From assembly GCF_009931435.1 (NCBI RefSeq), contig NZ_CP043414.1: a stretch of DNA of 64,000 bases; one strand, 5' to 3'. This stretch comes from Escherichia coli (GTDB lineage Bacteria > Pseudomonadota > Gammaproteobacteria > Enterobacterales > Enterobacteriaceae). Shown one piece after another: positions 62,109 through 63,451 of the stretch. A model generated the notes under the pieces. It made no database searches. It was given only the letters and a program-made list of their open reading frames with translations, and was not told the origin of the DNA. The position numbers and the translations under genes are program-made. Within the stretch, counting starts at the first letter, position 1. Each line of letters begins with the position of its first letter.

Positions 62109-62420
62109 AGATAGTCGAATGGTGGGGAAAAGTCACTCGAAATACGTATGAGATGACGAATGCCACACTTTGCGTCTTATTCCTCCGACGTAGAGTCGTT
62201 TACGCAGCAAGCGCGGAGTATGTCATCAGGGTCAAGAATTGAAATTGAGAGATGCCTGAATAGCAAAAAAGCGCCTTTAGGGCGCTTTTTTACATTGGTG
62301 GGTCGTGCAGGATGACTCACTTCGCTCGCCCTTCGGGCCGTCGCCGCAAGCGGCTCCGTTGTTTCGCTGCGCTCTACTCGAACCTGCAGCAGGTTCGAAT
62401 CTTTGAATATCGCAGATAGC

Positions 62421-62447
62421 AAAAAAGCGCCTTTAGGGCGCTTTTTT
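62421..62447 (-). terminator. Terminator hairpin immediately after the last tRNA-Lys (a second copy lies at about 62265-62291)
   Basis: aaaaaagcgcc-ttta-gggcgctttttt, a symmetric hairpin flanked by A/T runs on both sides. Confidence 0.6.
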
Positions 62448-62451
62448 ACAT

Positions 62452-62527
62452 TGGTGGGTCGTGCAGGATTCGAACCTGCGACCAATTGATTAAAAGTCAA
62501 CTGCTCTACCAACTGAGCTAACGACCC
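62452..62527 (-). tRNA. lysQ: tRNA-Lys (anticodon UUU)
   Basis: Reverse complement is a 76-nt tRNA-Lys including CCA: gggtcgttagctcagttggtagagcagttgacttttaatcaattggtcgcaggttcgaatcctgcacgacccacca. Confidence 0.9.
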
Positions 62528-62659
62528 CTTGCGGGATTATGCTGCTTTAATCATTCAGGATGGTGGGTCGTGCAGGATGACTCGACTTCGTCTCGCCCTT
62601 CGGGCCGTTGCTGACGCAACGTTATCCTTCACATTCTCTACCAGTAACCACCTTTAAAT

Positions 62660-62735
62660 TGGTGGGTCGTGCAGGATTCGAACCTGCGACCAATTGATTA
62701 AAAGTCAACTGCTCTACCAACTGAGCTAACGACCC
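62660..62735 (-). tRNA. lysZ: tRNA-Lys (anticodon UUU)
   Basis: Identical 76-nt tRNA-Lys sequence on the minus strand. Confidence 0.9.
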
Positions 62736-62881
62736 ATACGGGTGTTACCTGAATGATTTCTACTCGGGACCAATCTTTAATATTGGTGGATCGTGCAGGA
62801 TGACTCGCTTCGCTCGCCCTACGGGCCGTTGCTGGCGCAACGTTATCCTTCACGCTTAACATCTGAGTTTGATGTTAAAAC

Positions 62882-62957
62882 TGGTGGGTCGTGCAGGATT
62901 CGAACCTGCGACCAATTGATTAAAAGTCAACTGCTCTACCAACTGAGCTAACGACCC
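62882..62957 (-). tRNA. lysY: tRNA-Lys (anticodon UUU)
   Basis: Identical 76-nt tRNA-Lys sequence on the minus strand. Confidence 0.9.
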
Positions 62958-62960
62958 GAG

Positions 62961-63036
62961 TGGTGGGTGATGACGGGATCGAACCGCCGACCCCCTCCTT
63001 GTAAGGGAGGTGCTCTCCCAGCTGAGCTAATCACCC
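62961..63036 (-). tRNA. valZ: tRNA-Val (anticodon UAC)
   Basis: Reverse complement is a 76-nt tRNA-Val: gggtgattagctcagctgggagagcacctcccttacaaggagggggtcggcggttcgatcccgtcatcacccacca. Confidence 0.9.
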
Positions 63037-63086
63037 GATACTGCGCTGGATACTACAAACTACTTCCACCGAACCCACCGCATTAG

Positions 63087-63162
63087 TGGTGGGTCGTGCA
63101 GGATTCGAACCTGCGACCAATTGATTAAAAGTCAACTGCTCTACCAACTGAGCTAACGACCC
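63087..63162 (-). tRNA. lysW: tRNA-Lys (anticodon UUU)
   Basis: Identical 76-nt tRNA-Lys sequence on the minus strand. Confidence 0.9.
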
Positions 63163-63164
63163 GG

Positions 63165-63240
63165 TGGTGGGTGATGACGGGTTCGAACCGCCGACCCCCT
63201 CCTTGTAAGGGAGGTGCTCTCCCAGCTGAGCTAATCACCC
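63165..63240 (-). tRNA. valT: tRNA-Val (anticodon UAC)
   Basis: 76-nt tRNA-Val differing from the 62961 copy at one T-arm position (ggttcgaac versus ggatcgaac on the plus strand). Confidence 0.9.
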
Positions 63241-63375
63241 GATACTACGCTGGATACTACAACTAACTAGGTTAGTGGTGGGTCGTGCAGGATGACTCGA
63301 CTTCGTCTCGCCCTTCGGGCCGTTGCTGACGCAACGTTATCCTTCACGTTTTACTACCGCTTCCACCTTAGCGAT

Positions 63376-63451
63376 TGGTGGGTCGTGCAGGATTCGAACC
63401 TGCGACCAATTGATTAAAAGTCAACTGCTCTACCAACTGAGCTAACGACCC
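63376..63451 (-). tRNA. lysT: tRNA-Lys (anticodon UUU)
   Basis: Identical 76-nt tRNA-Lys; first gene of the cluster after cpoB. Confidence 0.9.

Follow-up and report, generated by a model that had tools for sequence, protein, structure and literature searches.

tRNA-Linked Repeats of the RtT Family in the Spacers of an Escherichia coli lysT Operon Carry Copies of the Upstream tRNA 3' End on a Conserved Structured Core

In the window, by which we mean the whole 64-kb stretch of DNA analyzed here, the lysT operon lies on the minus strand and contains seven tRNA genes called by ARAGORN, accompanied by four repeat units that we number from the lysT end. The first gene, lysT (tRNA-Lys(UUU), 63376..63451), is separated from valT (tRNA-Val(UAC), 63165..63240) by a spacer holding unit 1, a short form of 74 nt (63276..63349) with its pseudo-tail at 63276-63293. 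The next genes are lysW (tRNA-Lys(UUU), 63087..63162) and valZ (tRNA-Val(UAC), 62961..63036), between which the spacer has no unit and measures 50 nt (63037..63086), compared with 149 nt including a unit in the pairwise alignment with K-12. Downstream of lysY (tRNA-Lys(UUU), 62882..62957) is unit 2, a short form of 72 nt (62784..62855) whose tail, at 62784-62801, has one mismatch to tRNA-Lys. The gene lysZ (tRNA-Lys(UUU), 62660..62735) follows, and the spacer between it and lysQ (tRNA-Lys(UUU), 62452..62527), the last gene of the operon, holds unit 3, again a short form of 74 nt (62561..62634; tail 62561-62578).

Directly 3' of lysQ stands the first copy of the operon terminator hairpin (62421..62447), recognizable as the palindrome AAAAAAGCGCC..GGCGCTTTTTT (I1). 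Unit 4 (62296..62418; tail 62296-62313), a long terminal form, comes next; its 5' part consists of an inverted T-arm copy (GATTCGAACCTGC) followed by CAGGTTCGA. Beyond it lies the second terminator copy (62265..62291). The two hairpins belong to a block of tail plus Rho-independent terminator that is duplicated perfectly over 54 nt (62260-62313 = 62416-62469, repeat family D3) and that the earlier note on this DNA did not mention; it is through this duplication that unit 4 comes to sit between two copies of the operon terminator. The terminator assignment rests on the palindrome and on the published Rho-independent terminator of the lysT and valU operons, which is the hairpin after lysQ (Agrawal et al. 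2014), as a simple scan for terminators and promoters listed neither the obvious hairpins nor any promoter.

The last 18 nt of tRNA-Lys (TGGTGGRTCGTGCAGGAT) occur nine times in the window, against zero expected from 100 shuffles. Five of the nine are the 3' ends of the tRNA-Lys genes themselves, and the remaining four are extra copies at 62296, 62561, 62784 (a G->A variant) and 63276, exactly where the earlier note had placed them, each joined on the minus (tRNA) strand to a conserved structured element. Each of the four is located on the strand of a tRNA-Lys gene and 30-65 nt downstream of it, and the tail matches the 3' end of that upstream tRNA at 18/18 positions in three units and 17/18 in one. 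The core GCRACGRCCCGNAGGGYGAR is likewise found four times in the window, always within these units, and was expected zero times. A single conserved element had been described behind three of the tail copies; this holds for the units at 62561 and 63276, in which the quoted element is identical and the overall identity is 89% over 94 nt (repeat family D4), whereas the version at 62784 differs by several substitutions and a length reduced by 2 nt (repeat families D5/D6). The divergence ascribed to the copy at 62296 was borne out, in that this unit matches the element as far as ...CGGGCCGT and then continues into a longer and different body.

The units had been expected to be shared with K-12, and this was indeed the case, the K-12 lysT operon having five units and the window four. 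Aligning the spacers with those of K-12, a check that the note itself had proposed, revealed one 99-nt gap in the window, which opens immediately past the true tail and closes immediately past the pseudo-tail; the K-12 lysW-valZ unit is therefore missing by an exact 99-bp indel bounded by tail repeats. The suggestion that the units are remnants of duplication by recombination gains from this result, as it indicates that recombination between tail copies is real. Both lysW-valZ alleles are common among E. coli genomes, dividing 32 vs 26 in a spread sample of 60 records, although this split is inexact, being read from E-values and spans with neighboring pieces joined. Furthermore, the K-12 argY-argZ spacer has no unit, and the sequence past the true tail there is the same as that past the pseudo-tails elsewhere in the operon. 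At the DNA level, the tail copies act as direct repeats through which units are lost and gained.

Could these units be a novel element? The note's author had not seen them annotated; however, the feature is already known. Rfam model RF00391 (RtT RNA) scores units 1 to 4 at 60.6, 54.2, 60.6 and 48.0 bits, all above the gathering score of 45, and R1, our own model of the units, scores them at 98.2, 86.3, 95.1 and 31.5 bits. In the near-identical strain MFDS1022581, RefSeq/PGAP labels the equivalent of the terminal unit as an ncRNA, "RtT sRNA". Elsewhere in K-12, the Rfam family occurs at tyrT (133-137 bits), proK (101 bits) and lysV (47 bits), in addition to the five copies at lysT, and the unit core is common to the repeats of tyrT, proK, lysV, the arg operon and rrnB T1-T2 (the RrB-encoding repeat). 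Such elements have been catalogued as tRNA-linked repeats, or TLRs (Rudd 1999/EcoGene, as reported in PMC8144298), a class with 22 copies at ten K-12 loci and one to five copies per locus (Rudd 1999, as cited by Stenum et al. 2021, PMC8144298). Over their last 18-19 bp they are identical to the 3' terminus of the stable-RNA gene (tRNA or rRNA) that precedes them (Stenum et al. 2021, PMC8144298); they have been described since 1978 and, in that account of the earlier work, have no known function (Egan & Landy 1978, cited in PMC8144298), the stringent-response phenotype originally attributed to RtT having been retracted (PMC8144298). Matched to the class as Stenum et al. describe it, the lysT spacer units are almost certainly TLRs.

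The three internal units nevertheless depart from the full RF00391 consensus structure, whose 5' half falls on the genuine upstream tRNA. Their alignments to the model contain a 43-44 nt insertion and non-canonical pairs in this half, and the score comes from the 3' ~70 nt. Consequently, the published RtT structure is not transferable to the short units; the terminal unit, on the other hand, retains the 5' half containing GGUUCGA. The description of each unit as a diverged tRNA 3' half holds for the tail and the T-stem-like closing strand, which are tRNA-derived, but not for the ~45-nt core, a separate module of three hairpins that is common to the tyrT, proK, arg-operon and rrnB repeats. All that remains of the tRNA in the units is a T-stem-like helix, the 3' strand and three acceptor-stem pairs. 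Neither ARAGORN nor Rfam RF00005 called any of the units, both finding only the seven real tRNA genes, and an identity as tRNA genes or pseudogenes was rejected, as the tRNA models recognized no cloverleaf (D, anticodon and T arms).

Folding the ~75-nt units, as had also been proposed, predicted a four-way junction of 72-74 nt for each of the three units within the operon, with a closing helix that pairs the tail copy. Unit 1 folds at -28.5 kcal/mol (z = -3.8), and the z-scores of units 2 and 3 are -1.75 and -2.7. In this fold, the closing helix P1 is formed by a T-stem-like 5' strand and the first ~10 nt of the tail copy (tRNA positions 59-76), the last 8 nt of the tail (ACCCACCA) are single-stranded, and the place of the T-loop is taken by the core, which comprises P3 (ACGUUGC-loop-GCAACG), P4 (GCCC-GNA-GGGC) and a variable P5. 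Nearly all short units have the same minimum-energy fold. An alignment of 23 units of the Lys and Arg types has 94.8% paired cells, compared with 28-50% when the partners are slid; one P1 pair appears as UA, GC or AU, and GC, AU and UA all appear in P5. In the 137 matches to R1, both sides change in 20 of the 23 pairs, values as high as those observed arise in none of 500 shuffles, and covariation scores 0.192 versus at most 0.07 when slid, although alignments of sequences selected by the core pattern or fitted to R1 are biased towards the structure. These compensatory changes support the helices. We prefer such column-wise pairing counts as evidence over the complementarity of the 5' strand to its own versus another tail (3.18 vs 2.15 of 4 type-specific positions), a contrast weaker than expected because all tails are pyrimidine-rich. 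Copying of the T-stem at the DNA level, whether inverted or direct, could alternatively have produced the P1 complementarity, instead of selection on RNA.

A scan of genomes with the core pattern showed how far the tails follow their hosts; about a third of the loci that it returned were chance matches in high-GC actinobacterial coding sequence and were discarded. About 100 units were compared, drawn from many genera of Enterobacterales and other Gammaproteobacteria; their 18-nt tail is the 3' end of the nearest upstream tRNA, mostly at 18/18 positions. Eight tRNA species are matched in this way (Lys, Tyr, Arg-ACG, Arg-CCG, Pro-CGG, Pro-UGG, Gln-CUG and Gln-UUG), and the matching extends to lineage-specific tRNA variants at four loci (L043, L049, L063 and L069). 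Downstream of 5S rRNA, a related variant has AACTGCCAGGCAT, the 3' end of 5S, as its terminus. The tail copy thus tracks the upstream gene.

Taken together, we consider it probable that the units are structured modules of the TLR family that have the tail of their host gene as their 3' end, are processed from the tRNA precursor and are prone to recombination. Each unit is a structured module of tRNA derivation on the tRNA strand, and the three internal ones would be transcribed inside the polycistronic precursor. RNase P, cutting at the 5' end of the next tRNA, would free them from the tRNAs, and RNase E cuts in the AU-rich spacers would also separate the two. The tail and the closing helix may offer a tRNA-like 3' end to RNase P or RNase E, as has been proposed for the rRNA-linked members: the 3' end of RrB maps 3 nt beyond the tail repeat, and recognition of the repeat by RNase E was suggested (Stenum et al. 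2021, PMC8144298). The idea that the units are processing signals, already voiced in the earlier note, agrees with this proposal (PMC8144298). By analogy with those members, we put forward such processing mimicry tentatively. In the internal units, the sequence past the pseudo-tail differs from that past the true tail, so that only for the terminal unit, situated past a terminator, does the argument for a same processing site apply in full. The units are also dispensable in nature, given the spacers without TLRs and the alleles without the unit. Published northern blots with lysT spacer probes detected only precursor species, in RNase P mutants, and the products of the spacer units in this operon appear to be short-lived.

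Might the units instead be neutral scars, that is, pseudo-tRNA 3' portions that decayed after tandem tRNA-gene duplication and unequal crossing-over and that serve no selected role, with recombination or gene conversion with neighboring tRNA genes, and hitch-hiking in highly conserved operons, as the sole reasons why they stay similar and their tails exact? Their presence and absence within E. coli and the TLR-less argY-argZ spacer fit this view, as do array sizes that differ between species with tandem periods of 153-178 bp, the lack of a stable RNA from the lysT spacers in the published northern blots, and a function that is not known after more than 40 years (PMC8144298). In two Citrobacter genomes, moreover, the module sits in the T-loop of a tRNA-Tyr pseudogene that is full-length but mutated, proof that units can belong to dead tRNA genes. 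Neutral decay does not account well, however, for a core and closing helix that stay paired through compensatory changes across genera and host tRNAs, or for a 5' closing strand specific to the tail type (as in the paired change from ATCCTCCC/GGGAGGAT to ATCCTCCT/AGGAGGAT); the 18-nt tail is also short for RecA-dependent conversion, yet identical at 18/18 positions in most units. We therefore regard this reading as somewhat unlikely. The same Citrobacter module, lying exactly within the T-loop, would also suit a mobile or integrative element, present or past, that targets the 3' regions of stable RNA genes (T-loop position 58/59 in tRNAs) and leaves the tail and tail-plus-terminator copies (up to 67 bp) as att-like or target duplications. 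The inserted block always lies between direct repeats that start in the T-loop (18 nt in the internal units, 54 nt at lysQ and 67 nt at proK), and one core is found behind at least eight different tRNAs and 5S rRNA; T-loops are reportedly known integrase targets, an observation said to go back to Williams in 2002. But the repeats enclose only 81-140 bp, with no recombinase or other cargo, the loci are syntenic across genera and not scattered, and the 5' strand of each unit is fitted to the tail of that unit, a match that would not travel with a transposing element. Such an element is quite unlikely in our estimation. An origin in phages was rejected as well, as in a scan of viral contigs with nine loci the real matches were the host tRNA or tyrT flanks of prophage contigs and not phage genes. 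A further reading makes the TLR core and tail a selected mimic of the upstream stable-RNA 3' end that acts as a decoy, sensor or titrator or, alternatively, the footprint of an unrecognized element that targets such ends. The tRNA-sized four-way junction would present an authentic ...NCCA (or 5S) 3' end, its closing helix imitating the T-stem/acceptor minihelix, and selection would keep it in step with the host gene across Gammaproteobacteria; candidate readers of stable-RNA 3' ends are RNase E, RNase T, RNase PH, the CCA-adding enzyme, RelA and acceptor-end toxins. Tail tracking at eight tRNAs and 5S, the compensatory changes and a range beyond Enterobacterales are compatible with this reading, which we nonetheless judge rather unlikely.

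Could the units, once excised, act in trans, as sRNAs or as sponges for CsrA, Hfq or other RNAs, in the manner of RrA/B/F or 3'ETS-leuZ? The core module is present in RrA/B/F too, and these RNAs bind Hfq and CsrA in vitro (PMC8144298), and the terminal lysQ unit likewise lies between two terminators. On the other hand, the 19 tRNA-operon TLRs all scored below 0.01 for predicted CsrA binding (PMC8144298), the northern blots reported no stable spacer-derived species, the original RtT phenotype was retracted (PMC8144298), and the sole GGA of each short unit is buried in the predicted closing helix. A trans-acting role seems improbable to a marked degree. Several GGA motifs in single-stranded loops would be expected of the RrA/B/F-type CsrA/Hfq-binding class, and by that one GGA in the modeled helix and by the predicted CsrA scores the short units fall outside it. 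A coding role, modeled on the "protamine-like" tpr ORF of the tyrT repeat, would make the units sources of short arginine-rich peptides. Two units do contain GTG-initiated ORFs of 25-26 aa (MKDNVASATARRARRSRVILHDPP..) on the tRNA strand, but the remaining two units have either no such ORF or another one, the start codon lies within the closing helix with no obvious ribosome-binding site, and the variation preserves base pairs, not codons. Tpr (MRSFDQGSTRAPARERCRRQRPEGRSAQR) occupies another part and reading frame of the tyrT repeat, and a Tpr-like peptide was rejected; peptide coding would be extremely surprising. A resemblance of the long units (GGAUGAG-hairpin-CGA(N)UC) to the hammerhead ribozyme (CUGAUGAG-stem II-CGAAAC) was also set aside, as the invariant C3, U4 and A14 are missing, and no Rfam ribozyme matched at E<=1.

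For annotation, the units should be labeled as TLR/RtT-like repeats and not as new RNAs, with little consequence for the window. TLRs are, however, an old puzzle, dating from 1978, and one member resides in the rrnB T1T2 terminator of countless plasmids. The present analysis adds the four-way-junction fold, the tail tracking, the compensatory changes and the exact 99-bp loss relative to K-12. The host-following tail and the junction with its compensatory changes provide handles on whether the repeats are functional 3'-end mimics or recombination-prone debris, and the natural alleles with and without the unit provide another.

Integrative elements leave duplications of tRNA 3' ends, the attL and attR sites at tRNA genes. 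Like these, the lysT units show a direct repeat of the tRNA 3' end, starting in the T-loop, that flanks inserted DNA. Unlike them, the insert is ~80-140 bp long, has no coding capacity and no integrase between the direct repeats, and consists of a conserved structured module that is syntenic across genera.

The RtT RNA, or rttR, of the tyrT operon was reportedly described by Bosl and Kersten in 1991. Its repeat (RF00391) has a homologous core, ACGUUGC..GCAACG-GCCCGNAGGG-hairpin-GAGUA, fused to the upstream tRNA tail at the same T-loop position. The tyrT units differ from the internal lysT units in being of the long form, ~130 nt within a 178-bp repeat, with a Tyr tail and an extra 5' half (anti-T-arm, then GGUUCGA) that the 72-74 nt units lack; without it, the latter do not reproduce the Rfam 5' helix. 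A stable 171-nt RNA is annotated at tyrT, whereas the published northern blots document none for lysT.

The RrA, RrB and RrF RNAs, encoded between T1 and T2 of rrnA, rrnB and rrnD (Stenum et al. 2021, PMC8144298), belong to the TLR family and share the P3-P4-P5 core, and their position between two terminators is that of the terminal lysQ unit. In contrast to the lysT units, their tail is the 5S rRNA 3' end. These RNAs contain GGA motifs, and their binding to CsrA and Hfq was observed in vitro, whereas the TLRs of tRNA operons are predicted not to bind CsrA (PMC8144298). The 3'ETS-leuZ sRNA sponge (Lalaouna et al. 2015, as described in PMC8144298) is, as the lysT units would be, a non-tRNA segment released by the processing of a tRNA precursor, but it has no sequence or structural similarity to the lysT units and no tail copy. 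The closest counterparts are the TLRs of K-12 (PMC8144298), which, like the lysT units, lie in tRNA operons directly downstream of a tRNA gene and combine an 18-nt copy of the 3' end of that tRNA with a core common to other loci. With up to five per locus, in line with the five copies at K-12 lysT and the four here, nothing essential differs between the two.

The tRNA cluster identified by ARAGORN at 62452-63451 on the minus strand, with five tRNA-Lys(UUU) and two tRNA-Val(UAC) genes, is the lysT operon, which lies between cpoB and nadA and is transcribed from the minus strand, with the same gene order and neighbours in K-12 and in a near-identical RefSeq strain. We counted nine occurrences of the 18-mer TGGTGGRTCGTGCAGGAT (the reverse complement of tRNA-Lys positions 59-76) across the 64-kb window, compared with zero expected. 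Five occurrences belong to the genuine tRNA-Lys genes, and the four extra tail copies reported in the earlier note are all present, at 62296, 62561, 62784 (with one G->A change) and 63276. The conserved element said to follow three of these copies is identical behind 62561 and 63276, but at 62784 a variant shorter by 2 nt takes its place; the 62296 copy indeed departs after CGGGCCGT into a longer body. Within the 64 kb, the 20-nt core GCRACGRCCCGNAGGGYGAR is limited to these four sites, which comprise three short intra-operon units of the 72-74 nt class (63349-63276, 62855-62784 and 62634-62561, minus strand) and one long terminal unit downstream of lysQ (62418-62296, minus strand). Separately, valT (63165-63240) and valZ (62961-63036) differ by one T-loop base (GGTTCGAACCC vs GGTTCGATCCC); both K-12 genes have the valZ-type loop, and the difference may be a strain polymorphism or a sequencing difference. 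A CpoB/ybgF RNA thermometer (RF02782, 142 bits, Rfam) lies 5' of cpoB in the K-12 pal-cpoB intergenic region (490-628 of collected locus L003); its counterpart is just past the window's end and bears no relation to the repeats.

The units almost certainly belong to the tRNA-linked repeats (TLRs), known in Rfam as RtT RNA (RF00391): an Rfam scan scored all four at 48-60.6 bits, above the family's gathering score of 45. As had been expected, the feature is shared with K-12, whose lysT operon has five RtT copies; four others (133-137 bits) lie at tyrT, the site of the annotated rttR and tpr, one 3' of proK (101 bits) and one 3' of lysV (47 bits). The belief that the repeats were not annotated did not hold, given the RF00391 matches, the ncRNA label "RtT sRNA" that PGAP/RefSeq gives the terminal lysQ copy in a strain with 99.5% identity to the window, and the TLR literature. 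The class was first noticed by Egan and Landy in 1978 and is without known function, a formerly claimed role of RtT in the stringent response having been retracted (Stenum et al. 2021, PMC8144298). As given in the same paper, the Rudd 1999 catalogue covers ten K-12 loci with 1-5 copies each, 22 in all. The tail and element repeats are therefore genuine and were accurately described, yet they belong to a documented family already covered by databases; the comparative details presented here may extend Rudd 1999 or may already be contained in it. In the K-12 serV-argVYZQ operon (1152-1914 of collected locus L133), three genes, argV, argZ and argQ, are each followed by a short-form TLR with a tRNA-Arg(ACG) tail. 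The Rfam RtT score of these TLRs, 31 bits, falls short of the gathering threshold, so that annotation based on Rfam would miss them; our short-form covariance model gives them 79-93 bits.

Fold prediction gave the three intra-operon units one architecture, a closing helix P1 (CGUG.AGGAU paired with AUCCU.CACG) enclosing hairpins P3 (6 bp, tetraloop), P4 (GCCC/GGGC, triloop) and P5 (short and variable), with the 3'-terminal 8 nt ACCCACCA predicted to be single-stranded. The folding energies are -28.5, -26.5 and -25.5 kcal/mol (z-scores -3.8, -2.7 and -1.75). Because the P1 5' strand consists of CGU (tRNA-Lys positions 5-7), a T-stem-like GAAGG and AU, the short unit resembles an acceptor/T-stem minihelix in which a three-hairpin core replaces the T-loop. 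The core/tail junction falls between tRNA positions 58 and 59, as it does in the Tyr, Arg, Pro and Gln versions. The terminal unit is ordered as an inverted T-arm copy (GAUUCGAACCUGC), a loop, CAGGUUCGA, the core and the tail; the E. coli long form is without most of the P1 5' strand, a loss in keeping with its low scores (48 bits in Rfam and 31.5 bits in our model).

A single core-pattern scan of 100,044 species genomes yielded 120 loci, about two thirds of them genuine units, in Citrobacter, Enterobacter, Klebsiella, Pantoea, Erwinia, Serratia, Rahnella, Brenneria, Edwardsiella and Gilliamella and, beyond Enterobacterales, in Marinobacterium and Ectothiorhodospiraceae MAGs. In nearly all units whose locus includes the upstream tRNA, the 18-nt tail is identical to the 3' end of that tRNA (Lys, Tyr, Arg-ACG, Arg-CCG, Pro-CGG, Pro-UGG, Gln-CUG or Gln-UUG), and the match is kept where the tRNA has a lineage-specific change (loci L043, L049, L063 and L069); a variant 3' of 5S rRNA has the 5S 3' end as its tail. 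The 5' closing strand varies with the tail, reading GGGAAGGAU for Tyr, GUGCAGGAU or GUGAAGGAU for Lys and GGGAGGAU for Arg, and AGGAGGAU where the Arg tail has a C->U change. Among 23 short units, gathered by a pattern in which P3 and P4 are fixed, pairing was found in 94.8% of cells, compared with 28-50% when partners were slid. Furthermore, in 137 matches from searching the collected loci with the covariance model built from short units, in an alignment fitted to that model, 20 of 23 pairs showed changes on both sides, and none of 500 shuffles attained the observed values. In Citrobacter werkmanii and Citrobacter sp. FP75 (L019, ~380-535, and L047, ~1040-1180, minus strand of the loci), a mutated full-length tRNA-Tyr pseudogene (anticodon loop CUGCAAA) comes first after the tyrT promoter, upstream of two intact tRNA-Tyr genes, and the TLR core splits its T-loop between positions 58 and 59; the module inside this T-loop displays the kinship of TLRs and tRNA genes directly.

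Some copies of the P3-P4 core (ACGUCGC..GCGACG-GCCCGNAGGGC-GA) have no recognisable tRNA tail. Often beside terminator-like hairpins, close to contig ends or in the vicinity of 5S/tRNA genes, they occur in Brenneria (L108-L110), Arsukibacterium (L128-L131), an Alcanivoracaceae MAG (L113), Acidobacteria MAGs (L029/L095) and loci L055 and L114; these may be more TLR subfamilies or unrelated repeats. On an IMG/VR contig (L009, ~4534-4660), a tyrT-type TLR truncated in its 5' half is fused to unrelated sequence, which suggests an insertion or prophage boundary within the TLR.

The lysW-valZ spacer measures 50 nt in the window (63037-63086) and 149 nt in K-12, where it holds a fifth unit. Alignment with the K-12 spacer places a single 99-nt gap from just past the real tail to just past the pseudo-tail, and the difference is a unit lost or gained through recombination between the 18-nt repeats. 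Among complete E. coli genomes each allele seems common: the E-values and spans of 60 evenly spaced records read as ~32 with the short form and ~26 with the K-12 form. The K-12 argY-argZ spacer is likewise of the TLR-less form. Matches covering at least 80% of the whole 1.5-kb region at a single site were limited to 738 of 5,426 genomes, and the operon is therefore polymorphic in structure.

Could the tail and the closing helix serve in RNA processing? Family membership, architecture, pairing conservation, tail tracking and recombination at the repeats are what this analysis establishes. The internal units would be part of the polycistronic precursor, from which the tRNAs are separated by RNase P (Agrawal et al. 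2014, PMC4176162). Through its tail and closing helix, the excised module might then present a tRNA-like 3' end to the enzymes that process the tRNAs, an extension of the RNase E proposal for RrB (PMC8144298). We put this forward tentatively, with somewhat less than even confidence. The spacer products are probably short-lived, because spacer probes showed precursor species only, in RNase P mutants, with few intermediates in the wild type (Agrawal et al. 2014, PMC4176162).

Recombination at the repeats, set beside the conserved pairing, bears on whether the units are neutral duplication scars, which we consider unlikely, and their tails, copied from tRNAs and 5S rRNA alike, on a mobile element targeting stable RNAs, which is less probable again. 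A trans-acting sRNA is slightly more doubtful still: the rRNA-linked RrA, RrB and RrF, produced by read-through between the T1 and T2 terminators, end 3 nt past the tail repeat and bound Hfq and CsrA in vitro, and CsrA binding is predicted to be absent for the 19 tRNA-operon TLRs (PMC8144298). GTG-start ORFs of 25-26 aa, arginine-rich (MKDNVASATARRARRSRVILHDPP..), lie within two TLRs (62555-62632 and 63267-63347, minus strand) and are not conserved in the window's remaining units; they resemble tpr, the annotated "protamine-like" ORF of the tyrT repeat, but lie in another frame and region. A small peptide is highly improbable.

Overlooked in the earlier note, a perfect 54-nt direct repeat (62260-62313 and 62416-62469) consists of the tRNA-Lys tail and the Rho-independent operon terminator. 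The lysT operon thus ends in two identical terminators with the 62296 unit between them, and this unit, lying beyond a terminator, would be transcribed by read-through only. The rrnB T1-T2 region has the same TLR core (AACGTTGCGAAGCAACGGCCCGGAGGGTG-hairpin-ATA) joined to the 5S 3' end, and the terminator-TLR-terminator layout of the lysT operon end is that of rrnB T1/T2, K-12 lysV and K-12 proK.
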